The notes below the pieces were generated by a model. That model was not told the DNA's origin. It ran no database searches and saw only the letters and a program-made list of their open reading frames with translations. From Escherichia coli (GTDB lineage: Bacteria > Pseudomonadota > Gammaproteobacteria > Enterobacterales > Enterobacteriaceae), in assembly GCF_009931435.1 (NCBI RefSeq), contig NZ_CP043414.1: DNA of 64,000 nt; one strand, 5' to 3'. The position numbers were made by a program, and so were the translations under genes. This document shows, piece after piece, positions 1-58,958 of this stretch. Numbering within the stretch: the first letter of the stretch is position 1; each line of letters begins with the position of its first letter.

Positions 1-1811
1 GCGCTTTGTGGCGCCGGAATTTTTTCGTAGATTTTTTCTCCGCTTTCCCGCCATTTTTCAAAACCAAGATGCCACAGTATTTGTTGCTCCGGTGTAAGCG
101 GTATTAAGTGTTTCTCCCAGCTTGCTTTTTTTATCGGCGGCAGGTCGGTAAACAATGTTTGTTTTGTCGCCTGCTGTTGGGCTATTTGCTGGAAGCGGGT
201 GACAAGGTAAGTACGGGTTAGTCTTTTGGCAATCTCGGGAGTGACATCAGAAACAGAAGGAACTGGAAGCACTGGAAGATCAAACACAGGCGTATTTTTC
301 TTTTTCTCTTTGGTCATCCAGGGCGGCGAAACAAACAGCTCCGGCAACATATCCACAGTGGCATATTCACATTCTTCAGCTACTGGCTGCGGACGACATT
401 CAGATAAGATGCCTGCCGCTTTAGCATTAACCCAGGGAATGACGTCACATACCAACTCTGGCCTGATGGTAATCAGTTTGATAAGTGCGTTACGCCACTG
501 TGCATCTTCGTGTATTGCAAGCAAAGTAGCATAAGCGGCAATAGCTGCAGCGGGATGTTTTTGACAGGCTTTGCTTAAGTATTCCAGGTGCTTTTTCTTG
601 CCAATCACAGCGAGGATCAGAATTTGAATCGCATCCGGGTGATTCGTTTTCCATAGCCATTTGACAAGATTTTCAGTCTCGCTGTTGCGCTCGAAAAGAT
701 AAGTGGGATTGTCAGAATGCTCTTCCGTAAACTCAAGAAGGATCTGGCTTACACCCCGAATTCCATTATTCGCCAGCAACATTGCCAGATAAGCGCGAAA
801 ATTACGAAAATCACGATACAACGGTGGGAAGTCGTATTTTTCCACTGTACTCAGAGCAGTATCATCGGTTATCACCAGTCTTAACCAGGTCATCGCCGGA
901 ACGTTTTGGTCTGCATAGCGTAGAGCCATAGCATTGGCAATATCCGGGCGTTCAGGGAGCAGTAACGCGGCAAAAGGTTGCCGTGCTGGAGATAGCGAGG
1001 GAATAGCCGCGAGTACTTTATCTACACAGCGTTGCCACTCATCTTCTGAAGTGAGTGAAAGATGATGACATAGACGTTGATGCCAACTAGGTAGCGATTC
1101 TGCTTCGTGATTAGGTGGAATGATGGTGGTTACTGCGCCTTTTACTGGTTTATATTTGAGTTGAATAGCGAGAAGGGCAATTTCAACGGCACTTTCCAGA
1201 CCACAGCGAATGACTAAGTCATCGACCAATTCATCTGCAGAGTAAGAGTTCCAAAAACTCCAAAGCAATGCTGCATCAGATTGCGCACTTCCTGTCTGTT
1301 GACTACCCAGAATTCGCATTTGTAACTCAGCAAACGCCTGCTGCCAGTTTTCTGGATAAGAACGGTAATTGTTGTCGGGATCATATGCCCTGGTGTTATC
1401 TGCAATACGCTTCCATATCTCACCGTCTTTGCGCAGATAATTGATCTCTCTGGGGCGAGAGCGATGTGGAAAAGCAAATCGGTTAATATCGTCGGTTAGC
1501 GGAATGGCTGCATCATCAGCCAGCCATGGGCGTTTGTTTTTACTCTCAGGTGAAGTTTCAACTTCAGGAGTGACTTTGGTGACGGGGGGGATATGCACGT
1601 TTGCCGAAGCGTCTTCCACATAGCCTTTTTTCGTTTTCTCAGCGATAAGCTTCAGTTCCGCTTTTTCCGCCGCCGCAGCATCCGCAAAGCTTTTTATCTG
1701 GCTTTGCCCTTGGGTGCCAACTTTTCCCCAACTGATATGCAACTCGTTACCTTGCTGCCCCACCGCCCAGAATTTATGCGATTTTTCGTCCTGATAGATA
1801 TAACTCTTCAT
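1..1811 (-). CDS. molR: WGR-domain protein, MolR-like; N-terminal ~603 codons, gene continues beyond window start
   Basis: ATG at 1811 on minus strand gives MKSYIYQDEKSHKFWAVGQQGNELHISWGKVGTQG (WGR-like N-terminus). Frame hand-checked at 1-360, 1020-1080, 1440-1480 and 1800-1811 with no stop or frame change; not every codon checked. Lies downstream of metG on the same strand as in K-12. Confidence 0.65.
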   Translation of the reverse strand, partial: MKSYIYQDEKSHKFWAVGQQGNELHISWGKVGTQGQSQIKSFADAAAAEKAELKLIAEKTKKGYVEDASANVHIPPVTKVTPEVETSPESKNKRPWLADDAAIPLTDDINRFAFPHRSRPREINYLRKDGEIWKRIADNTRAYDPDNNYRSYPENWQQAFAELQMRILGSQQTGSAQSDAALLWSFWNSYSADELVDDLVIRCGLESAVEIALLAIQLKYKPVKGAVTTIIPPNHEAESLPSWHQRLCHHLSLTSEDEWQRCVDKVLAAIPSLSPARQPFAALLLPERPDIANAMALRYADQNVPAMTWLRLVITDDTALSTVEKYDFPPLYRDFRNFRAYLAMLLANNGIRGVSQILLEFTEEHSDNPTYLFERNSETENLVKWLWKTNHPDAIQILILAVIGKKKHLEYLSKACQKHPAAAIAAYATLLAIHEDAQWRNALIKLITIRPELVCDVIPWVNAKAAGILSECRPQPVAEECEYATVDMLPELFVSPPWMTKEKKKNTPVFDLPVLPVPSVSDVTPEIAKRLTRTYLVTRFQQIAQQQATKQTLFTDLPPIKKASWEKHLIPLTPEQQILWHLGFEKWRESGEKIYEKIPAPQS

Positions 1812-1910
1812 CCGCGTTCCCTGTATTTATATCCAGTTATAAGCGGATGCTAGCAGTTAATGAAAAAAATTAAGAGCGTTGAACAAACAAGAAAACAACT
1901 TTAGGAATTC

Positions 1911-1940
1911 ATAAAGAAAAGGCGCTGTCGATGCAGCGCC
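1911..1940 (-). terminator. Probable rho-independent terminator of metG
   Basis: Inverted repeat ggcgctg/cagcgcc (about 1921-1940) followed on the minus-strand transcript by a U-rich run, directly after the metG stop. Confidence 0.5.
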
Positions 1941-1951
1941 TTGAAGGGGGA

Positions 1952-3985
1952 TTATTTCACCTGATGGCCCGGTTTAGCACCGGCATCCGGGCTTAGCAGG
2001 AAAATATCTTTCCCGCCAGGACCGGCAGCCATCACCATGCCTTCAGAGATACCGAAGCGCATTTTACGTGGTGCCAGGTTAGCCACCATAATGGTGTGAC
2101 GACCAATAAGTGCCTGCGGATCCGGGTAAGCAGAACGAATGCCGGAGAAGACATTGCGTTTTTCACCGCCGAGATCCAGTGTCAGGCGCAGCAGTTTGTC
2201 AGAACCTTCAACAAACTCTGCGTTTTCAATCAGCGCCACGCGCAGGTCAACTTTAGCGAAGTCGTCAAAGGTGATGGTTTCCTGAATCGGATCATCTGCC
2301 AGCGGGCCAGTCACGGGGGCGGCAGTGGCTTTCACTTCTTCTTTAGACGCTTCCACCAGTGCTTCAACCTGCTTCATATCGATGCGGTTATACAGCGCCT
2401 TGAACGGATTCACTTTGTGGCCCAGCAGCGGTTGCTGGATGCCATCCCAGGTCAGTTCCGTATTGAGGAATGCTTCTGCACGCTCGGTCAGTTTTGGCAG
2501 TACCGGCTTCAGGTAAGTCATCAGTACGCGGAACAGGTTAATGCCCATAGAGCAAATCGCCTGCAGGTCAGCATCGCGACCTTCCTGCTTCGCCACCACC
2601 CACGGAGCCTGTTCATCGACATAGCGGTTAGCCAGGTCAGCCAGTGCCATGATTTCGCGCACTGCTTTACCAAATTCACGGCTTTCCCATGCTTCACCAA
2701 TCACTTCAGCGGCATCCGTGAAGGTTTTGTACAACTGCGGGTCAGCCAGTTCGCTTGCCAGCACGCCGTCAAAACGTTTGTTGATAAAGCCTGCGTTACG
2801 GGACGCCAGATTAACCACTTTGTTGACGATATCGGCATTCACACGCTGAACGAAATCTTCCAGGTTGAGATCGATATCATCAATGCGCGAAGAGAGTTTC
2901 GCAGTGTAGTAGTAACGCAGGCTGTCAGCGTCAAAATGATTCAGCCAGGTGCTGGCTTTAATAAAGGTGCCGCGAGACTTGGACATCTTCGCGCCGTTCA
3001 CCGTTACATAGCCGTGAACAAACAGGTTGGTCGGCTTGCGGAAGTTGCTACCTTCCAACATGGCAGGCCAGAACAGGCTGTGGAAGTAAACAATATCTTT
3101 ACCGATGAAGTGGTACAGCTCGGCGGTGGAGTCTTTCTTCCAGTATTCATCGAAGCTTACGCTGTCGCCGCGCTTGTCACACAGATTCTTGAAAGAACCC
3201 ATGTAGCCAATCGGTGCGTCCAGCCAGACGTAGAAATATTTGCCCGGCGCGTTCGGAATTTCAAAACCGAAGTACGGTGCATCGCGGGAGATATCCCATT
3301 GTTGCAGGCCAGATTCAAACCACTCCTGCATTTTGTTTGCCACCTGCTCCTGCAACGCACCGCTGCGGGTCCATGCCTGCAGCATTTCGCTGAAAGAGGG
3401 CAGATCAAAGAAGAAGTGTTCAGAATCACGCATTACCGGGGTAGCGCCAGAAACCACCGATTTCGGCTCGATCAGTTCAGTCGGGCTATATGTTGCGCCG
3501 CAGACTTCACAGTTATCGCCGTATTGATCCGGTGATTTACATTTCGGGCAGGTGCCTTTCACAAAACGGTCCGGCAGGAACATGCCTTTTTCCGGATCGT
3601 ACAGTTGAGAGATGGTGCGGTTTTTAATAAAACCGTTTTCCTTCAGGCGAGTATAGATAAGCTCAGACAACTGACGGTTCTCTTCACTGTGCGTCGAGTG
3701 ATAGTTGTCATAGCTGATGTTAAAGCCTGCGAAATCAGTCTGATGCTCCTGACTCATTTCGCCAATCATCTGCTCCGGAGTGATACCAAGCTGCTGAGCT
3801 TTCAGCATGATTGGTGTACCGTGGGCATCGTCGGCGCAGATGAAGTTGACCTCGTGGCCGCGCATTCGCTGGTAACGGACCCAGACATCAGCCTGGATGT
3901 GCTCCAGCATATGGCCGAGGTGGATTGAGCCGTTAGCGTACGGCAGTGCGCACGTCACCAGAATTTTCTTCGCGACTTGAGTCAT
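1952..3985 (-). CDS. metG: Methionine--tRNA ligase
   Basis: 680-aa ORF with HIGH-type motif ([11 protein letters not shown]) and KMSKS motif. Start set at the internal ATG giving [10 protein letters not shown] (677 aa) from memory of K-12 MetG; the ORF could begin 3 codons upstream (MPTMTQ). Confidence 0.95.
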
Positions 3986-4152
3986 AGTAGGCATTACTTC
4001 TTTGTAGTGAAAAGGGCTTAGATAGTACCAAATGGGGCATGGTTACGTAAGTCCTGTGCAAGCATCTTATGATGCATTATTAGGTAAGTACTTAGCTGTT
4101 AACTTCAGGTAAACTAATAGCGATAAGTTATCTTTATAAATAAGGAGTCGGG

Positions 4153-5262
4153 ATGAACGAACAATCCCAGGCCAAATCACCAGAAGCCCTGCGCGCAATG
4201 GTCGCCGGGACACTGGCCAATTTTCAGCACCCAACCCTCAAGCATAACCTCACCACGCTGAAAGCGTTGCACCATGTCGCCTGGATGGACGACACGCTGC
4301 ATGTGGAACTGGTTATGCCGTTCGTATGGCATAGCGCGTTCGAAGAGTTAAAAGAGCAATGTAGCGCCGAACTGCTGCGCATTACCGGGGCGAAAGCTAT
4401 CGACTGGAAACTGTCGCACAATATCGCCACCTTAAAACGCGTGAAGAATCAGCCGGGAATTAACGGCGTGAAGAACATCATTGCGGTCAGCTCCGGTAAA
4501 GGCGGCGTGGGTAAATCCTCCACGGCGGTAAATCTGGCGCTGGCACTGGCGGCGGAAGGGGCGAAAGTCGGCATTCTGGACGCCGATATCTACGGCCCAT
4601 CAATACCCACCATGCTGGGCGCAGAAAATCAGCGTCCAACTTCGCCGGACGGTACCCATATGGCACCGATTATGTCTCATGGACTGGCAACCAATTCAAT
4701 TGGTTATCTGGTCACTGACGACAATGCGATGGTGTGGCGTGGTCCGATGGCGAGCAAGGCGTTAATGCAGATGTTGCAGGAAACCTTGTGGCCGGATCTC
4801 GACTATCTGGTGCTTGATATGCCGCCAGGCACCGGTGACATTCAATTGACACTGGCACAAAACATTCCAGTAACTGGCGCGGTAGTGGTCACCACCCCGC
4901 AGGACATTGCGTTGATCGATGCGAAAAAAGGCATTGTGATGTTCGAGAAAGTCGAGGTTCCGGTGCTCGGTATTGTCGAGAACATGAGTGTGCATATTTG
5001 CAGTAACTGTGGTCACCATGAACCGATTTTCGGTACCGGTGGTGCAGAGAAACTGGCCGAGAAATACCACACGCAGTTGCTGGGGCAGATGCCGTTACAC
5101 ATTTCCTTACGTGAAGATCTCGATAAAGGCACGCCAACAGTTATCAGCCGTCCGGAGAGCGAATTTACTGCTATCTACCGCCAGCTGGCTGACCGCGTTG
5201 CAGCCCAGCTTTATTGGCAGGGAGAAGTCATTCCTGGCGAGATTTCCTTCCGCGCGGTCTGA
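4153..5262 (+). CDS. mrp: Fe-S cluster carrier ATPase Mrp/ApbC
   Basis: 369-aa ORF with deviant Walker A (SSGKGGVGKSS) and CxxC (CSNCGHH); divergent from metG as in K-12. Confidence 0.95.
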   Translation: MNEQSQAKSPEALRAMVAGTLANFQHPTLKHNLTTLKALHHVAWMDDTLHVELVMPFVWHSAFEELKEQCSAELLRITGAKAIDWKLSHNIATLKRVKNQPGINGVKNIIAVSSGKGGVGKSSTAVNLALALAAEGAKVGILDADIYGPSIPTMLGAENQRPTSPDGTHMAPIMSHGLATNSIGYLVTDDNAMVWRGPMASKALMQMLQETLWPDLDYLVLDMPPGTGDIQLTLAQNIPVTGAVVVTTPQDIALIDAKKGIVMFEKVEVPVLGIVENMSVHICSNCGHHEPIFGTGGAEKLAEKYHTQLLGQMPLHISLREDLDKGTPTVISRPESEFTAIYRQLADRVAAQLYWQGEVIPGEISFRAV

Positions 5263-5290
5263 CGCGCATTAACCTTTTTGGTTGTTTTTT

Positions 5291-5335
5291 ATACACCGCA
5301 GAGATGTTACATTGATGCGGTGTATTTGTTTTTGC
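5291..5335 (+). terminator. Probable rho-independent terminator after mrp
   Basis: Hairpin acaccgca...tgcggtgt followed by atttgttttt. Confidence 0.5.
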
Positions 5336-5524
5336 CGCATTAATGAACACTTATTTAATGCTGCGAATATTCTGCGGACCTTCGTCCGAAACTCTATAAA
5401 GTCGATTGATCGTACAGGCAATGCATCATTATCATCCTTCGTGGCTGTGTAGTGGATGTACAGCTATAGTTTGTTATGCACTCATTCTATCCAGGCATAA
5501 CCTTTACTACAGGGATAACGTTCA

Positions 5525-5806
5525 ATGAATAAGTACTGGCTGTCAGGAATTATTTTTCTTGCCTATGGAATGGCTTCTCCCGCGTTCTCTTCACAGACTG
5601 CCACATTAACGATTAATGGCAGGATCAGTCCCCCAACATGCAGTATGGCTATGGTTAATGGTCAACCTCAACAGCATTGTGGTCAGTTAACGTATGATGT
5701 TGATACCCGTCATCAGGTTTCTTCGCCAGTCAAAGGTGTGACGACAGAAGTGGTTGTTGCAGGTAGCGATAGCAAACGTCGAATCGTGTTAAATCGCTAC
5801 GATTAA
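5525..5806 (+). CDS. yehE: Small secreted protein YehE
   Basis: 93-aa ORF with N-terminal signal peptide (MNKYWLSGIIFLAYGMASPAFS); position upstream of the yeh fimbrial genes. Confidence 0.75.
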   Translation: MNKYWLSGIIFLAYGMASPAFSSQTATLTINGRISPPTCSMAMVNGQPQQHCGQLTYDVDTRHQVSSPVKGVTTEVVVAGSDSKRRIVLNRYD

Positions 5807-6101
5807 TTTGCCACCCTGGTTTTTTAAGCGGATTTAGAAAGCTGAAATCATTCGTGTGAATGATTTCAGCTTTTTTATTGATATTAATAATACCATTTAA
5901 AAAAATCTGCATTAATTAATAGATGTGATAAATATTTAATATGCTTAAGTATTTGTTGTATTTATATTGCAATAGTTAATTTGTTTTAAATCAATAAAAC
6001 AATATGTTTACATTGCGGCAACTTTTTTGATGTGAGAAATTTGTTTCCAAGAGATACAGACTCTTAACAACCAAAAAATAAATTTTATTAAGGGACATAT
6101 T

Positions 6102-6644
6102 ATGAAACGTTCAATTATTGCTGCCGCTGTCTTTTCTTCTTTTTTTATGAGCGCTGGGGTATTTGCCGCAGACGTTGATACCGGAACATTAACCATTAAA
6201 GGGAATATTGCAGAATCTCCGTGTAAATTCGAAGCGGGTGGCGATTCAGTAAGTATTAATATGCCAACTGTACCAACCACTGTCTTTGAAGGTAAAGCTA
6301 AATACTCGACCTATGATGATGCAGTCGGTGTAACCAGCAGCATGTTAAAAATTAGCTGTCCGAAAGAAGTTGCTGGTGTAAAACTCTCGTTGATTACCAA
6401 CGATAAAATAACCGGAAACGATAAGGCGATAGCCAGTAGCAACGATACCGTGGGGTACTATCTCTATTTAGGTGATAACAGCGATGTCCTGGATGTTTCT
6501 GCACCTTTTAACATTGAAAGTTATAAAACAGCGGAAGGTCAATATGCTATTCCGTTTAAAGCAAAATACCTGAAGCTGACAGATAATTCAGTGCAATCAG
6601 GTGATGTGTTATCTTCTCTGGTTATGCGTGTGGCGCAGGATTAA
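6102..6644 (+). CDS. yehD: Fimbrial major subunit-like protein
   Basis: 180-aa ORF with signal peptide and conserved fimbrial Cys pair; first gene of a subunit-chaperone-usher-adhesin array. Confidence 0.85.
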   Translation: MKRSIIAAAVFSSFFMSAGVFAADVDTGTLTIKGNIAESPCKFEAGGDSVSINMPTVPTTVFEGKAKYSTYDDAVGVTSSMLKISCPKEVAGVKLSLITNDKITGNDKAIASSNDTVGYYLYLGDNSDVLDVSAPFNIESYKTAEGQYAIPFKAKYLKLTDNSVQSGDVLSSLVMRVAQD

Positions 6645-6724
6645 TAAATAAAATTTCAAATTTCTCCAGGTAATAAACATGGCCGCTATCCCCATGGCGG
6701 CCTTTTAATTTAAGAGGCATTAAG

Positions 6725-7399
6725 ATGAAAGGATTATTAGCTTTACTCATTTCTTCTATGGTCCTTCCTGCACATGCCGGTATTGTCATCTACGGGACGC
6801 GTATTATTTACCCGGCAGAAAACAAAGAAGTGACGGTGCAGTTGATGAATCAGGGAAACCGTTCTTCGCTGCTGCAGGCGTGGATTGATGATGGCGATAC
6901 GTCGTTACCACCAGAAAAAATTCAGGTTCCTTTCATGTTAACGCCACCAGTGGCAAAAATAGGGGCAAATTCCGGGCAGCAAGTAAAAATCAAAATTATG
7001 TCGAATAAACTGCCCACTAATAAAGAGAGCATTTTTTATCTGAATGTTCTGGATATTCCACCAAATAGTCCAGAGCAAGAGGGCAAGAATGCACTGAAAT
7101 TTGCAATGCAAAACAGAATCAAATTGTTTTACCGGCCTGCGGGTATTGCACCGGTAAATAAAGCGACATTTAAAAAGTTACTGGTAAATCGCAGTGGCAA
7201 TGGATTGGTGATAAAAAATGACTCAGCAAATTGGGTAACGATTTCGGATGTCAAAGCTAATAATGTCAAAGTCAATTATGAAACTATTATGATTGCCCCC
7301 TTAGAAAGTCAGAGTATTAATGTCAAAAGTAATAATGCGAATAACTGGTATCTGACCATTATCGATGACCATGGCAACTATATTAGTGACAAAATTTAA
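6725..7399 (+). CDS. yehC: Periplasmic fimbrial chaperone (PapD-like)
   Basis: 224-aa ORF with signal peptide; chaperone-like N-terminal region (IVIYGTRIIYPAENKEVTVQLMNQG). Confidence 0.85.
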   Translation: MKGLLALLISSMVLPAHAGIVIYGTRIIYPAENKEVTVQLMNQGNRSSLLQAWIDDGDTSLPPEKIQVPFMLTPPVAKIGANSGQQVKIKIMSNKLPTNKESIFYLNVLDIPPNSPEQEGKNALKFAMQNRIKLFYRPAGIAPVNKATFKKLLVNRSGNGLVIKNDSANWVTISDVKANNVKVNYETIMIAPLESQSINVKSNNANNWYLTIIDDHGNYISDKI

Positions 7400-7414
7400 T
7401 TGCAGGAGCTGCCT

Positions 7415-9895
7415 ATGTTGAGAATGACCCCACTTGCATCAGCAATCGTAGCGTTATTGCTCGGCATTGAAGCTTATGCAGCTGAAGAAACCTTTGATAC
7501 CCATTTTATGATAGGTGGAATGAAAGACCAGCAGGTTGCAAATATTCGTCTTGATGATAATCAACCCTTGCCGGGGCAGTATGACATCGATATTTATGTC
7601 AATAAGCAATGGCGCGGGAAATATGAGATTATTGTTAAAGACAACCCGCAAGAAACATGTTTATCAAGGGAAATTATCAAGCGGTTAGGCATTAATACCG
7701 ATAACTTTGCCAGCGGTAAGCAATGTTTAACATTTGAGCAACTTGTTCACGGTGGGAGATATACCTGGGATATCGGAGTTTTTCGTCTCGATTTCAGTGT
7801 ACCGCAGGCGTGGGTGGAGGAACTGGAAAGTGGCTATGTTCCACCGGAAAACTGGGAGCGGGGTATTAATGCGTTTTATACCTCTTATTATGTGAGTCAG
7901 TATTACAGCGACTATAAAGCGTCGGGTAATAGCAAGAGTACATATGTACGTTTTAACAGCGGGTTAAATTTACTGGGGTGGCAACTGCATTCTGATGCCA
8001 GTTTCAGTAAAACAAATAGCAATCCAGGGGTGTGGAAAAGCAATACCCTGTATCTGGAACGTGGATTTGCCCAACTTCTCGGCACGCTTCGCGTGGGTGA
8101 TATGTACACATCAAGCGATATTTTCGATTCTGTTCGCTTCAGCGGTGTGCGGTTGTTTCGTGATATGCAGATGTTGCCTAACTCGAAACAAAATTTTACT
8201 CCACGGGTGCAGGGGATTGCTCAGAGTAACGCGCTGGTAACGATTGAACAGAACGGTTTTGTGGTTTATCAGAAAGAGGTTCCTCCTGGCCCGTTTGCGA
8301 TTACAGATTTGCAGTTGGCCGGTGGTGGAGCAGATCTTGATGTCAGCGTGAAAGAGGCGGACGGTTCGGTAACCACCTATCTGGTGCCTTATGCAGCAGT
8401 GCCGAATATGCTGCAACCCGGCGTGTCGAAATATGATTTTGCGGCAGGTCGTAGCCATATTGAAGGGGCGAGCAAACAAAGTGATTTTGTTCAGGCGGGT
8501 TATCAGTATGGTTTTAATAACTTATTGACGCTGTATGGCGGATCGATGGTCGCGAATAATTATTACGCGTTCACTTTGGGCACAGGCTGGAATACACGCA
8601 TTGGTGCCATTTCCGTCGATGCCACGAAGTCGCATAGTAAACAAGACAACGGCGATGTGTTTGACGGGCAAAGTTATCAAATTGCCTACAACAAATTTGT
8701 GAGCCAAACGTCGACGCGTTTTGGTCTGGCGGCCTGGCGTTATTCGTCGCGTGATTACCGGACATTTAACGATCACGTTTGGGCAAACAATAAAGATAAT
8801 TATCGCCGTGATGAAAACGATATCTATGACATTGCCGATTATTACCAGAACGATTTTGGCCGTAAAAATAGCTTTTCTGCCAATATGAGCCAGTCATTGC
8901 CAGAAGGCTGGGGTTCTGTGTCCTTAAGTACGTTATGGCGAGATTACTGGGGGCGTAGCGGCAGCAGTAAGGATTATCAGTTGAGTTATTCCAACAACCT
9001 GCGACGGATAAGCTATACCCTCGCGGCAAGCCAGGCTTATGACGAGAATCATCATGAAGAGAAACGTTTTAATATTTTTATATCGATTCCCTTTGATTGG
9101 GGTGATGACGTTACGACGCCTCGTCGGCAAATATATATGTCTAACTCAACGACGTTTGATGATCAGGGTTTTGCCTCAAATAATACGGGATTATCGGGAA
9201 CCGTTGGAAGCCGGGATCAATTTAACTATGGGGTCAACCTGAGTCATCAGCATCAGGGAAATGAAACGACAGCTGGAGCGAATTTAACCTGGAACGCGCC
9301 GGTGGCAACGGTGAATGGCAGTTATAGTCAGTCGAGTACTTATCGACAGGCTGGAGCCAGTCTTTCAGGGGGCATTGTCGCCTGGTCGGGTGGCGTTAAT
9401 CTGGCGAACCGTCTTTCCGAAACGTTTGCTGTGATGAATGCGCCAGGAATTAAAGATGCTTATGTCAATGGGCAAAAATATCGCACAACAAACCGTAATG
9501 GAGTGGTGGTATACGACGGAATGACACCTTATCGGGAAAATCACCTGATGCTGGATGTGTCGCAAAGCGATAGCGAAGCAGAATTACGTGGCAACCGGAA
9601 CATTGCCGTCCCTTTTCGCGGCGCGGTTGTACTGGTTAATTTTGATACCGATCAGCGCAAGCCCTGGTTTATAAAAGCGTTAAGAGCGGATGGGCAACCA
9701 TTAACGTTTGGTTATGAAGTCAATGATATCCACGGTCACAATATTGGTGTTGTCGGTCAGGGAAGCCAGTTATTTATCCGCACTAATGATGTACCGCCAT
9801 CGGTTAATGTGGCAATTGATAAACAACAAGGGCTCTCATGCACAATCACCTTCGGTAAAGAGATTGATGAAAATAGGAATTATATTTGCCAGTAA
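7415..9895 (+). CDS. yehB: Outer-membrane fimbrial usher
   Basis: About 826 aa, usher-sized. Track ORF begins at a TTG at 7400; ATG at 7415 is preceded by aggag and gives MLRMTPLASA with a signal peptide. Confidence 0.9.
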   Translation: MLRMTPLASAIVALLLGIEAYAAEETFDTHFMIGGMKDQQVANIRLDDNQPLPGQYDIDIYVNKQWRGKYEIIVKDNPQETCLSREIIKRLGINTDNFASGKQCLTFEQLVHGGRYTWDIGVFRLDFSVPQAWVEELESGYVPPENWERGINAFYTSYYVSQYYSDYKASGNSKSTYVRFNSGLNLLGWQLHSDASFSKTNSNPGVWKSNTLYLERGFAQLLGTLRVGDMYTSSDIFDSVRFSGVRLFRDMQMLPNSKQNFTPRVQGIAQSNALVTIEQNGFVVYQKEVPPGPFAITDLQLAGGGADLDVSVKEADGSVTTYLVPYAAVPNMLQPGVSKYDFAAGRSHIEGASKQSDFVQAGYQYGFNNLLTLYGGSMVANNYYAFTLGTGWNTRIGAISVDATKSHSKQDNGDVFDGQSYQIAYNKFVSQTSTRFGLAAWRYSSRDYRTFNDHVWANNKDNYRRDENDIYDIADYYQNDFGRKNSFSANMSQSLPEGWGSVSLSTLWRDYWGRSGSSKDYQLSYSNNLRRISYTLAASQAYDENHHEEKRFNIFISIPFDWGDDVTTPRRQIYMSNSTTFDDQGFASNNTGLSGTVGSRDQFNYGVNLSHQHQGNETTAGANLTWNAPVATVNGSYSQSSTYRQAGASLSGGIVAWSGGVNLANRLSETFAVMNAPGIKDAYVNGQKYRTTNRNGVVVYDGMTPYRENHLMLDVSQSDSEAELRGNRNIAVPFRGAVVLVNFDTDQRKPWFIKALRADGQPLTFGYEVNDIHGHNIGVVGQGSQLFIRTNDVPPSVNVAIDKQQGLSCTITFGKEIDENRNYICQ

Positions 9896-9910
9896 TAATC
9901 GGGTGGCTCT

Positions 9911-10945
9911 ATGAAAATTCGCATAATGTTATTTATATTAATTATGATGGTAATGCCTGTGAGTTATGCAGCATGTTATGGAGAGTTATCTGCTCAGCAT
10001 AATTTGGCTGTTCAGGGGGATTTTGCACTGACTCAAACACAAACGGCGACATATGAGCATAATTTCAACGATTCATCATGTGTGAGTACAAATACCATCA
10101 TTCCCATGAATTCATCGGATATTATTGTTGGGCTGTATAACGATACTATTAAATTAAATTTACATTTTGAATGGATCAATAAAAACAACATCACGTTGTC
10201 AAATAATCAGACCAGTTTCACCAGTGGTTATTCGATAACGGTAACACCTGCGGCTAGTAATGCAAAAGTAAATGTTTCTGCGGGGGGCAGCGGTTCAGTG
10301 ATGATTAATGGTGTTGCGACATTATCCAGTGCTTCATCATCGACACGCGGGAGTGCTGCAGTACAATTTTTACTGTGTTTATTCGGTGGCAAGTCATGGG
10401 ATGCATGTGTAAATAGCTACAGAAATGCATTGGCACAAAATGCAGGTGTCTATTCCTTTAATCTGACATTGTCATACAACCCGATAACCACAACCTGCAA
10501 ACCGGACGATTTATTAATTACTTTAGAGAGTATTCCCATTTCACAATTACCAGCTACAGGTAACAAAGCAACAATAAATAGTAACAAAGGGGATATTGTT
10601 CTGCGTTGTAAAAACTTATTAGGTCAACAAAATCAAACATCACGGAAAATGCAGGTGTATTTATCAAGTTCTGATTTGTTAACCAACAGCAACACAATAC
10701 TGAAAGGTGCGGAAGATAATGGCGTAGGATTTATTCTTGAAAGTAATGGTTCTCCAGTCACACTTTTAAATATCACTAACAGCAGTAAAGAATACACAAA
10801 TTTAAAAGAAATTGCGGCAAAGTCAAAACTTACAGATACAACGGTTTCAATTCCGGTAACTGCCAGTTACTACGTCTACGATACAAATAAAGTTAAATCT
10901 GGCGCTCTGGAGGCTACCGCCTTAATCAACGTGAAATATGATTAA
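9911..10945 (+). CDS. yehA: Fimbrial adhesin-like tip protein
   Basis: 344-aa ORF with signal peptide, last gene of the yehDCBA array. Confidence 0.8.
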   Translation: MKIRIMLFILIMMVMPVSYAACYGELSAQHNLAVQGDFALTQTQTATYEHNFNDSSCVSTNTIIPMNSSDIIVGLYNDTIKLNLHFEWINKNNITLSNNQTSFTSGYSITVTPAASNAKVNVSAGGSGSVMINGVATLSSASSSTRGSAAVQFLLCLFGGKSWDACVNSYRNALAQNAGVYSFNLTLSYNPITTTCKPDDLLITLESIPISQLPATGNKATINSNKGDIVLRCKNLLGQQNQTSRKMQVYLSSSDLLTNSNTILKGAEDNGVGFILESNGSPVTLLNITNSSKEYTNLKEIAAKSKLTDTTVSIPVTASYYVYDTNKVKSGALEATALINVKYD

Positions 10946-10999
10946 TAACAAGTAAGACGAGCAAGTGGCTAATAATAAAAAATAACAAGGTGTCTGCAT

Positions 11000-11029
11000 T
11001 TCCCCCTCATGATGAGGGGGCTTTTTTTA
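11000..11029 (+). terminator. Probable rho-independent terminator after yehA
   Basis: Hairpin tccccctcat/gatgaggggg followed by a run of seven T. Confidence 0.55.
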
Positions 11030-11365
11030 GCGATGATAAAAAATCTCACCGTCGTAGGCTTTAATGATTTTACCGTCGGCATCGTTGATCAACACGTATG
11101 CGCCACCCATATAGGTCCAGTGCGTTCCGGCATCAGGAGCGGGCAGGTTACGTAACTGCCACTGCTTAATGTTGTACTCATCGGTGCGGTACATCTCTGG
11201 GACGGTATCGCCTGGTTTGAAATGCTTAAAGTCAGCAATGAAACTGCTTAACTCATACTTAGAAATTCCCGAGGTATTGGTCGAACCCGCGGTGGCTGGT
11301 GCGGCCCAGGCGGCACTGGTAACCAGCAATAGCGCACCCAGCAACATCTTATTTTTAATGGTCAT
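11027..11365 (-). CDS. rcnB: Periplasmic Ni/Co homeostasis protein RcnB
   Basis: Track ORF is 172 aa; internal ATG giving MTIKNKMLLGALLLVTSAAWA (signal peptide, 112 aa) matches my memory of RcnB; downstream of rcnA on the same strand. Confidence 0.85.
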   Translation of the reverse strand: MTIKNKMLLGALLLVTSAAWAAPATAGSTNTSGISKYELSSFIADFKHFKPGDTVPEMYRTDEYNIKQWQLRNLPAPDAGTHWTYMGGAYVLINDADGKIIKAYDGEIFYHR

Positions 11366-11569
11366 ATACTCTCCACTTTGGGGATCTGTAATATCAGTCG
11401 CATATCTTTCCTGCCATACAATATAACTGACAAGCGATATTTTGTTAGTGATCCCATGATTTCGTAAAAAGTGTAAATGAAAGGATGCCCTAAAAGCATC
11501 CTTAGCGAGCAGAGAGCCAGCGGAAATAGCTGATTTAAGAATCATCCTGGGCTGAAGATAACATGCAGC

Positions 11570-12391
11570 CTATCGCATAATGCCCATAAAGCCATGCACG
11601 CCCATATACACCCCAACTAAGCCAATCAACAGACTGGAAAAATAGGGCGCACGTTTAGCGAGAGTGTTAAATCCGCTCCAGCGTTTTGCGACCTGCTGAA
11701 CGCTGATTGCTGCGCCAACGCCTACGGTGACCAGCGTTAACGCCAGGCCAATGCTGAAACTGACGACCAGTGTTGCGCCCAGTGTCAGGGCTTTCAACTG
11801 AATACAAATCAACAGCACGGTAATTGCTGCCGGGCAGGGGATCAGTCCACCTGTTAACCCAAACAATAAAATTTGCCAGTTGGTCACTTCTCTGCCATTG
11901 AAGCGTCGTTTGATGTCATTGGCATGGGCTCGTGCATGAGCATCCTGATACTCCCCATGTTCGTGATGGTGATGATGTCCATGGTCGTGGTGATCTTCGT
12001 GATCGTGATGATACTCATGATCATGCCCGTGCATATTCTCCAGCCAGTTGCGTTCGCCGCGCCAGGTACGCCAGAACATCCAGAACGCGGTGCCAATAAT
12101 GATCACCGCGGAAATCAACTGGAGCCACGGTTCTGCAGATTGAGCAGTAAAACGTTTGCTGATCACCATCCCGCCAAAGGCAATCAACCAGACCACCGCG
12201 GTATGCGAAAGGGTTGCTGCCAGTCCGAGCATCACCGCCTGTTTAATGGTGCCTTTGATGGCGATGATAAACGCCGCCATCATCGTTTTTGAGTGCCCTG
12301 GTTCCAGGCCATGAAGCGCACCAAGTAAGATGGCGCTGGGAATGAAGAACCAGGCGTTTCCTTGCTGAAGAAGAGTGGTAAATTCGGTCAT
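11570..12391 (-). CDS. rcnA: Nickel/cobalt efflux permease RcnA
   Basis: 273-aa membrane protein with a His-rich loop (HGHDHEYHHDHEDHHDHGHHHHHEHGE). Confidence 0.9.
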   Translation of the reverse strand: MTEFTTLLQQGNAWFFIPSAILLGALHGLEPGHSKTMMAAFIIAIKGTIKQAVMLGLAATLSHTAVVWLIAFGGMVISKRFTAQSAEPWLQLISAVIIIGTAFWMFWRTWRGERNWLENMHGHDHEYHHDHEDHHDHGHHHHHEHGEYQDAHARAHANDIKRRFNGREVTNWQILLFGLTGGLIPCPAAITVLLICIQLKALTLGATLVVSFSIGLALTLVTVGVGAAISVQQVAKRWSGFNTLAKRAPYFSSLLIGLVGVYMGVHGFMGIMR

Positions 12392-12874: not shown

Positions 12875-12990
12875 ACCAAACGACTCGGGGTGCCCTTCTG
12901 CGTGAAGGCTGAGAAATACCCGTATCACCTGATCTGGATAATGCCAGCGTAGGGAAGTCACAGACCACCAGGTCATTGCTTCTTCACGTT
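12875..12990 (+). promoter_or_regulatory. TPP riboswitch (thi box) in the thiM leader
   Basis: ggggtgcccttctgcgtgaaggctgagaaatacccgtatcacctgatctggataatgccagcgtagggaa immediately upstream of thiM; conserved THI-element core (ctgaga, cctgatctggataatgccagcg). Boundaries approximate. Confidence 0.9.
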
Positions 12991-29217: not shown

Positions 29218-29304
29218 AAAAAATAAGCCCGTGTAAGGGAGATTACACAGGCTAAGGAGGTGGTTCCTGGTACAGCTAGCATTTTATGGGTTATGTTTTT
29301 CAGC
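29218..29304 (-). ncRNA. cyaR: CyaR (RyeE) Hfq-dependent small RNA
   Basis: Minus-strand sequence GCUGAAAAACAUAACCCAUAAAAUGCUAGCUGUACCAGGAACCACCUCCUUAGCCUGUGUAAUCUCCCUUACACGGGCUUAUUUUUU matches the CyaR sequence as I recall it, including the terminator hairpin and U-tail. Confidence 0.85.
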
Positions 29305-29388
29305 GAAACGGATGATAACCTTAATAAATGCAGCTGTATGTGATCGGTTTCTAAGAATTTTCCATCCGGGAAAAATAATCGAAATTAA

Positions 29389-43389: not shown

Positions 43390-43531
43390 GAAACGGGAAA
43401 GCCCCTCCCGAGGAAGGGGCCTTAAATAAGGAAAGGGTCATGATGAAGCTACTCATCATCGTGGTGCTCTTAGTGATTAGCTACCCAGCATACTAAGACT
43501 ACCAGGGCGGGGGAAACCCCGCTCTACCCTC
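43390..43531 (-). ncRNA. sibB: Sib antisense RNA covering ibsB
   Basis: Minus-strand promoter: -35 TTGACA (revcomp of about 43562-43567), 17-nt spacer, -10 TACTTT (revcomp of about 43539-43544); terminator-like hairpin gcccctcc...ggaagggg near 43401-43420. Ends approximate. Confidence 0.6.
43440..43496 (+). CDS. ibsB: Type I toxin Ibs (18 aa, hydrophobic)
   Basis: ATGATGAAGCTACTC... encodes MMKLLIIVVLLVISYPAY, preceded by aaggaaaggg. A/B assignment by position (copy nearer mdtA), from memory. Confidence 0.8.
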   Translation: MMKLLIIVVLLVISYPAY

Positions 43532-43717
43532 ACTCCTGAAAGTATGCCTTCACGATAAGATTGTCAATCCGCAGGATTTGCCGTCTGCGATCCTGCCAGC
43601 AAATATTCTTTGCGAGTCGTTACGCAATAATCACAGAGGAAACTATTTTATTCACGCGTTAGCGATAGACTGCATTCAGGGCGAAAGGAGGTAAGCCGAT
43701 GATTTCAGCGGGACGCT

Positions 43718-43866
43718 GAAACGGGAAAGCCTCTCCCGGAGAAGAGGGCTTTTAATAAGGAAAGGGTTATGATGAAGCACGTCATCATACTGGTGATACT
43801 CTTAGTGATTAGCTTCCAGGCTTACTAAGAACACCAGGGGGAGGGGGAAACCTCTCCCTAACCCTC
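43718..43866 (-). ncRNA. sibA: Sib antisense RNA covering ibsA
   Basis: Minus-strand promoter: -35 TTGACA (revcomp of about 43897-43902), 17-nt spacer, -10 TAATTT (revcomp of about 43874-43879); hairpin gcctctcccggagaagagggc near 43730-43750. Ends approximate. Confidence 0.6.
43769..43828 (+). CDS. ibsA: Type I toxin Ibs (19 aa, hydrophobic)
   Basis: ATGATGAAGCACGTC... encodes MMKHVIILVILLVISFQAY; second copy of the repeat unit, nearer yegL. Confidence 0.8.
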   Translation: MMKHVIILVILLVISFQAY

Positions 43867-44048
43867 ACTCCTGAAATTATGTCACTCCGCACTTAGTGTC
43901 AATCGACGGCTCTCCGTTCTTGCGAGGCGAATAGCAAAATTTTCTGCGCCGCCGGGCCTAATTCTGAAAGTTTCTTCGTTTGCTCTTATTTCATTATTGC
44001 AGTCGGTATGATACCGGACCTCGATAATTCTCTAAGAAAGGATTTCTT

Positions 44049-58478: not shown

Positions 58479-58946
58479 AGTAAGTACAAAACCTATTCGT
58501 TGTATGACAAATGTCACAATTCGATCATGGATAAATCGGGGCAAAAATGCAATGTTGCAGCACTATTTATCTCATATTATTTGAGGGTAATAACCTCACA
58601 TTATCCCTGAATTAAAAGTGGTAATAATAAAACATTATTTAAGAAATATCGCATGTGGAGGCGCAATATTAAATATTGTCAACCTAAAGAAACTCCTAAA
58701 AACCATATTGAATGACACTTAATATAATTCTTAAAAATAGCCAATTGCCGAATTGTTACCTTGCCTGCTATTCCGTTAGCTGTAACACTTCCTCCTGCAT
58801 TATTGGAGAGCCAATATTCAATTACCATAATGTCACCTTATATTCGGAAGTTAATTTCCGCAATAACCCTTTCTCATCAACGATTGTATGCAGAGAGGGT
58901 TTGAAAAATTAAGCTAAATCAGTGTATTGGTAGCTAAAAAGCCAGG

Positions 58947-58958
58947 GGCGGTAGCGTG
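58947..58958 (+). promoter_or_regulatory. ops (operon polarity suppressor) element in the wza 5' leader
   Basis: ggcggtagcgtg seen directly, about 180 nt upstream of the wza ATG; matches the RfaH-recruiting ops consensus GGCGGTAGnnTG. Confidence 0.7.

Follow-up and report, generated by a model that had tools for sequence, protein, structure and literature searches.

The stretch of DNA analysed here (hereafter the window) comprises 64,000 nucleotides of Escherichia coli contig NZ_CP043414.1 (assembly GCF_009931435.1), and its left edge is occupied by the N-terminal half of a gene encoding a WGR-domain protein. We take this gene to be the first of a "DUF4132 array" adjacent to metG, i.e., a series of tandem paralogues of about 1,260 amino acids that begin with a WGR domain, continue as a long HEAT-like alpha-solenoid and carry DUF4132 in their C-terminal part. 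It is preceded by an operator for LexA, and its family is linked across phyla to the genes yehL, yehM, yehP and yehQ. Our reading is that a class-A array gene (class A being the first gene after metG in strains GF4-3, O157, ST131 and ECO_2_R) stands under LexA control, and that its product would act as a DNA-end sensor or adaptor for a midasin-like remodeller. Taken as a whole, we favour this reading with some reservation. Its part on identity and regulation is very likely correct, while the mechanism, a damage-induced sensor or adaptor for such a remodeller, is the best of those we ranked and is proposed tentatively.

The first-pass annotation had described the minus-strand frame starting at position 1811 as an open WGR-domain gene. 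Full translation from the ATG at 1811 down to position 3 yielded an uninterrupted run of 603 sense codons in one constant frame, and a search for an in-frame stop or a frameshift within 1-1811 found none. In random sequence, an open run of 603 codons has odds of about (61/64)^603, or about 3e-13. The start codon agrees with those annotated for the orthologues (the window protein begins with MKSYIYQDEKSHKFW, that of GF4-3 with MRRFIYQDEK...), and the WGR domain is matched by Pfam PF05406 at amino acids 8-69 with 65.9 bits (cut-off 22). Hence, both the open frame and the domain stood up to inspection. The full-length protein is expected to have about 1,266 amino acids, since the GF4-3 orthologue (WP_171460641) has 1,268. 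The features of this region, including the regions of the predicted structure with their predicted local distance difference test (pLDDT) scores, are the following.

1..1811, minus strand: N-terminal 603 codons of the class-A WGR-HEAT-DUF4132 gene, based on the open frame, the identity to GF4-3 and the ratio of nonsynonymous to synonymous divergence (dN/dS)
1605..1790, minus strand: WGR domain, amino acids 8-69, PF05406 match
1542..1601, minus strand: predicted disordered linker, amino acids 71-90, pLDDT below 50, variable among alleles
312..1541, minus strand: all-alpha HEAT/ARM-like solenoid in the structure model, amino acids 91-500, with a low-confidence loop at 221-236
1..311, minus strand: allele-variable low-confidence stretch, amino acids 501-603, pLDDT 40-65, leading into a second solenoid
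1819..1838, no strand assigned: LexA (SOS) operator, AACTGGATATAAATACAGGG on the gene strand, 21.2 bits, ending 7 nucleotides before the ATG
1847..1856, minus strand: CTGnTAGCAT block, a conserved island and candidate extended -10 element, about 10 nucleotides upstream of the LexA box
1919..1942, minus strand: intrinsic terminator of metG and upstream boundary of the unit, with a 9-bp stem (6 G-C pairs) and a T-run, conserved in the Escherichia/Klebsiella alignment

The gene had initially been called the orthologue of molR of E. coli K-12, and this identification did not survive. At the DNA level (blastn), the window gene is 95.9% identical to the class-A gene of GF4-3, 94.1% to that of O157, 91.1% to that of ST131 and 87.2% to that of ECO_2_R. 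Against yehF/yehH of K-12, or against any class-B gene (the second gene in the same four strains), only the first 190 nucleotides or so align, which correspond to the WGR region. The visible protein is 95% identical to the first copy of GF4-3, 35% to K-12 yehF/yehH and 27.5% to YehI, and it is not the array paralogue closest to K-12 molR. The K-12 gene itself pairs with class B. By these sequence comparisons, the window gene is a class-A paralogue absent from K-12, and K-12 molR is a class-B gene. The two nevertheless have much in common: both occupy the slot following the metG terminator, with a LexA operator at the same offset, 7 nucleotides before the ATG, and both would have the WGR...DUF4132 architecture. 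They differ in that the K-12 gene is a broken class-B paralogue and the window gene an open class-A one.

The statement that the K-12 copy is a multi-fragment pseudogene proved right. Comparison with the intact single gene of strain GB089, to which the K-12 gene is 98.8% identical, located two lesions: a change from TTA to TGA at codon 275 (NC_000913 2,197,296-98) and an extra G in a run of G near NC_000913 2,199,319 (+1). These two point lesions account for the three pieces of yehF/yehH, of 274, 682 and around 315 amino acids, annotated as the yehF coding sequence and the yehH pseudogene (b2115/b4499).

The first-pass annotation had argued that an intact copy would be worth noting. Yet, among 11 genomes sampled from the BLAST ranking, the first gene is annotated as intact in 10, and an intact first gene is the usual state in E. 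coli. RefSeq labels the gene class "DUF4132 domain-containing protein", and its class-A members (e.g., GF4-3 WP_171460641 and ST131 WP_001215662) are true orthologues of the window gene, with 83-95% amino acid identity and the same position and length class. The window allele stands apart by a DNA divergence of at least 4% from all 5,426 complete genomes (best 94.6-95.9%), by a distinct promoter spacer, and by a LexA box of 21.2 bits instead of 17.7. When the first 2 kb of the window were compared with these genomes, the highest identity was 94.6%; at least 80% of this segment is covered in 1636 genomes, and the remaining ones align over 1615-2000 only. The window gene adds one allele to a gene class that is already known and routinely annotated.

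The 5' region of the gene holds a high-scoring CTG-N10-CAG, as found in operators of the LexA regulon. Using a matrix of 18 E. coli SOS boxes known from the literature, it scores 21.2 bits (training median 20.9) and is the sole site of at least 10 bits in the whole window. A box was found at an equal offset, with 14.4-20 bits, in seven Escherichia and two Klebsiella loci (K-12, GF4-3, O157, ST131, ECO_2_R, E. whittamii, Escherichia sp. E1V33, K. oxytoca and K. grimontii). Aligning the upstream regions of Escherichia and Klebsiella leaves just two conserved islands in the stretch from the metG terminator to the ATG, namely the box and the CTGnTAGCAT block, in a spacer that otherwise diverges. 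A scan with the sigma-70 consensus revealed no promoter on the gene strand and did not report this block. In line with the operator, molR is tabulated among the LexA-regulated genes of E. coli with a known SOS box (PMC6590174). We infer from this layout that transcription begins downstream of the metG terminator, under the control of a LexA operator overlapping the transcription start and the ribosome-binding region. If so, the gene should be normally silent and induced upon DNA damage. The control would probably extend to the whole array, because the paralogues are separated by only 9-12 nucleotides.

The protein has the fold of a WGR domain and its W-G-[RK] signature, which is kept across the family, although some members lack the domain altogether. 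Structure models of the two halves of the protein, with pLDDT of 77 and 88, consist of the WGR fold and HEAT-like solenoids. In the second one, modelled on the C-terminal half of the GF4-3 orthologue (pLDDT 88), further HEAT-like repeats are followed by an alpha/beta module covering DUF4132. The latter is found at amino acids 1002-1185 of this 95%-identical orthologue (E=7e-51), and the corresponding part of the window gene lies beyond the edge. Residues 1-530 are collinear with dozens of proteins of 1,200-1,300 amino acids at 27-52% identity. A match to the NCBIfam model LIC_11051 was disregarded, as it reached 57.9 bits for a cut-off of 1000 and concerned the WGR region only. YehI (b2118), the last paralogue of the same array, also has a solenoid plus DUF4132 body and has no WGR domain (retrieved locus L001, 8280-11912), as is also the case for the distant relatives P0095, P0134, P0173 and P0191. 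Hence, forms with and without WGR coexist within one array.

The suggestion that a vWA/MoxR module lies downstream was correct for related genomes, where yehL and yehP follow the array; in the strain studied here the module would lie beyond the window edge. To study the family, we searched 1.8 billion representative proteins, which gave many relatives of 1,200-1,300 amino acids with 27-52% identity. We then scanned one genome per species with a profile made from 21 full-length sequences. This resulted in 437 confirmed loci, of which the 74 retrieved ones were used for the linkage counts. They span Escherichia, Klebsiella, Erwinia, Serratia, Variovorax, Burkholderia, Massilia, Lysobacter, Stenotrophomonas, Trichlorobacter and Mycolicibacterium. 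Partner genes were located by tblastn with the K-12 proteins, with the following results for presence and for identity to K-12 across phyla.

YehL (MoxR, AAA_5): 56 of 74 loci, 70-76% identity
YehM (DUF5682): 54 of 74 loci, about 45% identity
YehP (vWA/MIDAS, VWA_CoxE): 51 of 74 loci, 65-70% identity
YehQ (SWIM): 50 of 74 loci, about 35% identity
WGR-DUF4132 protein: the query family, 36-40% identity

In most of the 74 loci, in Enterobacterales, Burkholderiales, Xanthomonadales, Trichlorobacter and Mycolicibacterium, these partners are adjacent, co-oriented and in the same order; the loci lacking them are short contigs or extra Massilia arrays. Gene neighbourhood thus strongly confirms the vWA/MoxR linkage for the family. 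The WGR-DUF4132 protein is often present in multiple copies, with up to 7 per 25 kb in Massilia, plus additional loci. In Burkholderia (L019, L032, L044, L069, L075) the order is permuted, with yehL-M-P-Q preceding the WGR-DUF4132 gene in the same orientation. On a 2.8-kb contig assigned to an actinobacterial metagenome-assembled genome of 'Collinsella sp.' (L008), a partial gene shows 86% identity to the class-A protein of Escherichia; this is probably a contamination of the bin.

How might such a protein work? We propose that it is induced by the SOS response, and that its WGR domain would bind DNA ends, nicks or other nucleic-acid termini by analogy with PARP1-3. The solenoid and DUF4132 body would serve as a scaffold or adaptor, coupling the bound site to YehL, a MoxR AAA+ protein, and to YehM (DUF5682), YehP (vWA/MIDAS) and YehQ (SWIM). 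Together, the YehLMPQ proteins might act like a split midasin, pulling on protein complexes at the expense of ATP to remodel or remove them. The WGR domain has the same fold and signature motif as those of PARP1/2/3 and of Bacteroides fragilis Q64V53 (PDB 2ra8), and the WGR of PARP contacts DNA breaks (see also PMC6294510). In contrast with PARP, the proteins described here lack the catalytic domain, and their WGR, for which DNA binding is presumed, continues into a solenoid of about 900 amino acids and DUF4132. Sequence searches of the PDB with YehM, YehP, YehQ and the family profile returned nothing but the WGR of 2ra8. The nearest solved relative of YehL is the Midasin AAA ring, and YehL has been described as one of seven MoxR subfamilies, uncharacterised so far (PMC3893208). 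YehL (AAA_5) with YehP (vWA/MIDAS) is the same kind of pairing as in MoxR-vWA pairs and in Midasin/Rea1. In the Yeh module, this pair is joined by DUF5682, a SWIM protein and at least one WGR-DUF4132 protein. A literature search for MoxR, SWIM and WGR together found no paper describing the module.

A parallel is provided by Deinococcus radiodurans, where DR2173 (WGR) and DRA0166 (DUF4132) have radiation/desiccation response motif (RDRM) sites and are derepressed upon depletion of DdrO, and where mitomycin C raises the level of both proteins, depending on IrrE/DdrO (PMC8533742). DR2173 and DRA0165-DRA0166 thus share domains with the array proteins and are damage-induced under the local damage repressor. 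The differences are that control relies on DdrO/IrrE rather than LexA, and that WGR and DUF4132 are not joined in one polypeptide. An array in each of three Massilia species has lexA about 1 kb upstream, in the same orientation, and uvrA adjoins one locus (L021, L054, L055, L035, L036, L052, L076). The high-scoring LexA boxes near these arrays were rejected as array operators, as they belong to lexA and uvrA themselves.

Several points weigh against the sensor/adaptor proposal. The gene extends past base 1 of the window, with about 665 more codons including DUF4132 outside of it, and the whole yehLMPQ operon is also beyond the edge. The operator scores depend on the choice of the 18 boxes in the matrix. 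A fold search with the alpha/beta module of DUF4132 gave only helical-repeat matches and no recognisable enzymatic fold; lacking a fold match, the module could still have a catalytic role. Some 40 loci from other genera were searched for lineage-specific LexA-type motifs in their upstream regions and had none, so damage control is not universal to the family. In K-12, yehL and yehM are repressed by H-NS/StpA from their own intergenic region (PMC3686432), and may thus not be co-regulated with the array. Finally, DNA binding by the WGR domain, coupling to YehLMPQ (including contact with YehL and YehP) and the remodelling role are putative.

To assess how the gene evolves, we compared it with four class-A alleles. 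The synonymous divergence (dS) is 0.13-0.36 and dN/dS is 0.17-0.27, indicating that the visible half is under purifying selection, relaxed but real. In metG, dS is similar (0.14-0.23), with a dN/dS of 0.003-0.03, and the substitution pattern of yehI resembles that of gene A. Because synonymous divergence is equally high in metG, much of the apparent hypervariability is regional. The most variable segments of the protein, amino acids 211-240 and 481-600, correspond to low-confidence loops of the model, and the share of variable columns among class-A alleles is highest at 501-603 (0.43-0.53). Gene-wide positive selection was therefore rejected, given these dN/dS values, a dS comparable to that of metG and the location of the variable patches in low-pLDDT loops.

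These results bear on an alternative in which an anti-phage or other conflict system uses the array as its variable sensor or specificity arm. The diversified WGR-DUF4132 paralogues would detect foreign nucleic acid or proteins of phages and trigger a MoxR-vWA-SWIM effector, the SOS control then reflecting prophage induction or DNA damage inflicted by phages. The tandem arrays (2-5 copies in Escherichia, up to 7 per 25 kb in Massilia), with paralogues 27-46% and alleles 83-95% identical next to a conserved ATPase, fit such a role, as do the frequent pseudogenes in some lineages (K-12, O157), the lower GC content of the gene (46.8% for 52.3% in metG), the silencing of yehLM by H-NS (PMC3686432) and the type I toxin-antitoxin pair between yehI and yehL (PMC2887945). 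However, none of seven proteins (the window fragment, the full-length orthologue, YehI and YehL/M/P/Q) matched PADLOC-DB v2, and 120 flanking proteins from 23 genera were mostly housekeeping, with sporadic defence-type matches and no defence-island context. Moreover, the gene-wide dN/dS is around 0.2, the most variable segments are predicted disordered loops and not structured surface, and the neighbouring metG shares the high synonymous divergence. We thus regard a defence function as unlikely. The gene could also be a decaying remnant, disrupted beyond the window or left non-functional by broken partner genes as in O157:H7, since the window shows no more than 603 of about 1,266 codons, two point lesions sufficed to break the K-12 gene, and interrupted copies exist in ECO_2_R and GF4-3. 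The purifying selection on the visible half relative to four alleles, the intact first gene in nearly all the sampled genomes, and an operator and start region that are intact, with an operator outscoring those of other strains, make decay more unlikely still.

The least plausible explanation is a "molybdate metabolism regulator", a name that some relatives still bear in the sources, or, considering the MoxR/CoxE-like vWA pair, a maturation factor of metallo- or molybdo-enzymes. The MoxR-vWA pairs CoxD/CoxE, NorQ/NorD and CbbQ/CbbO mature metalloenzymes, which would count in its favour, as would the assignment of YehP to the VWA_CoxE family. The place of YehL among the seven MoxR subfamilies (PMC3893208) points the same way. 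Nevertheless, only WGR and DUF4132 were detected in the protein, with no DNA-binding regulator or molybdate-binding domain, the gene is broken in K-12, and genes for molybdoenzymes or cofactors are not a recurrent feature of the flanks in 23 genera. The molybdate genes of Deinococcus showed no change alongside the WGR/DUF4132 genes (PMC8533742), and control by LexA fits cofactor metabolism poorly. This explanation is thus highly improbable.

A bolder and rather doubtful extension is that the array and YehLMPQ constitute an uncharacterised DNA-damage-response machine, overlooked so far because K-12 has only a pseudogene in place of its SOS-controlled gene. In that case, each damage-induced WGR paralogue would recognise a different DNA end, lesion or foreign DNA, and recruit the midasin-like MoxR-vWA-SWIM remodeller, which would strip or reorganise proteins at that site. 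Escherichia/Klebsiella would have placed such a machine under LexA, and Deinococcus, independently, under DdrO. What textbooks list as the SOS gene molR is the broken class-B copy of K-12, and natural strains such as this one carry one to several intact, diverged paralogues with the same operator. The finding itself is modest; the lead is an orphan SOS gene, broken in K-12 and tied to a conserved and unstudied MoxR-vWA-SWIM module. Following it could reveal what this long-standing orphan of the SOS regulon does, and likewise give a role to one of the seven subfamilies of MoxR.

The organisation of the array varies between strains. The order in K-12 is metG, yehF (the WGR coding sequence, 275 amino acids), yehH (pseudogene), yehI (DUF4132, no WGR), yehK, yehL, yehM, yehP and yehQ. 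In other strains, the interval between metG and yehK contains the following genes.

ST131: A (1,266 amino acids), B (1,253 amino acids) and yehI, all intact
ECO_2_R: A intact, B interrupted, and yehI
GF4-3: three intact copies and fragments

The short gaps between A, B and yehI suggest that they form an operon. The yehLMPQ genes are present in every E. coli locus that was fetched far enough, i.e., K-12, O157, ST131 and ECO_2_R. The spacer between yehK and yehL measures 0.3 kb in K-12 and around 1.2 kb in O157 (retrieved locus L003, 9746-10985), where it holds the type I toxin genes z3289/z3290 and antisense small RNAs (PMC2887945). In K-12 the yehK-yehL spacer is an H-NS binding region (PMC3686432), and in many strains the H-NS-bound intergenic region of yehL and yehM also contains the zor/orz toxin-antitoxin pair (PMC2887945).

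Upstream of the array gene, metG lies at 1952-3994 on the minus strand. Its dS relative to five E. coli strains is unusually high. The left end of the window (1-12000, the metG-yehB flank) is at most 98.3% identical to any of the complete genomes, and the right end 99.3%. This divergence suggests a rare lineage, or a region prone to recombination near the colanic-acid/O-antigen genes. Elsewhere in the window, Rfam matches at the gathering score comprise two Sib antitoxin RNAs (43425-43567 and 43754-43902), CyaR (29221-29306), the thiM thiamine pyrophosphate (TPP) riboswitch (12876-12972) and a JUMPstart element (58920-58958), all of which are expected in this region of E. coli.

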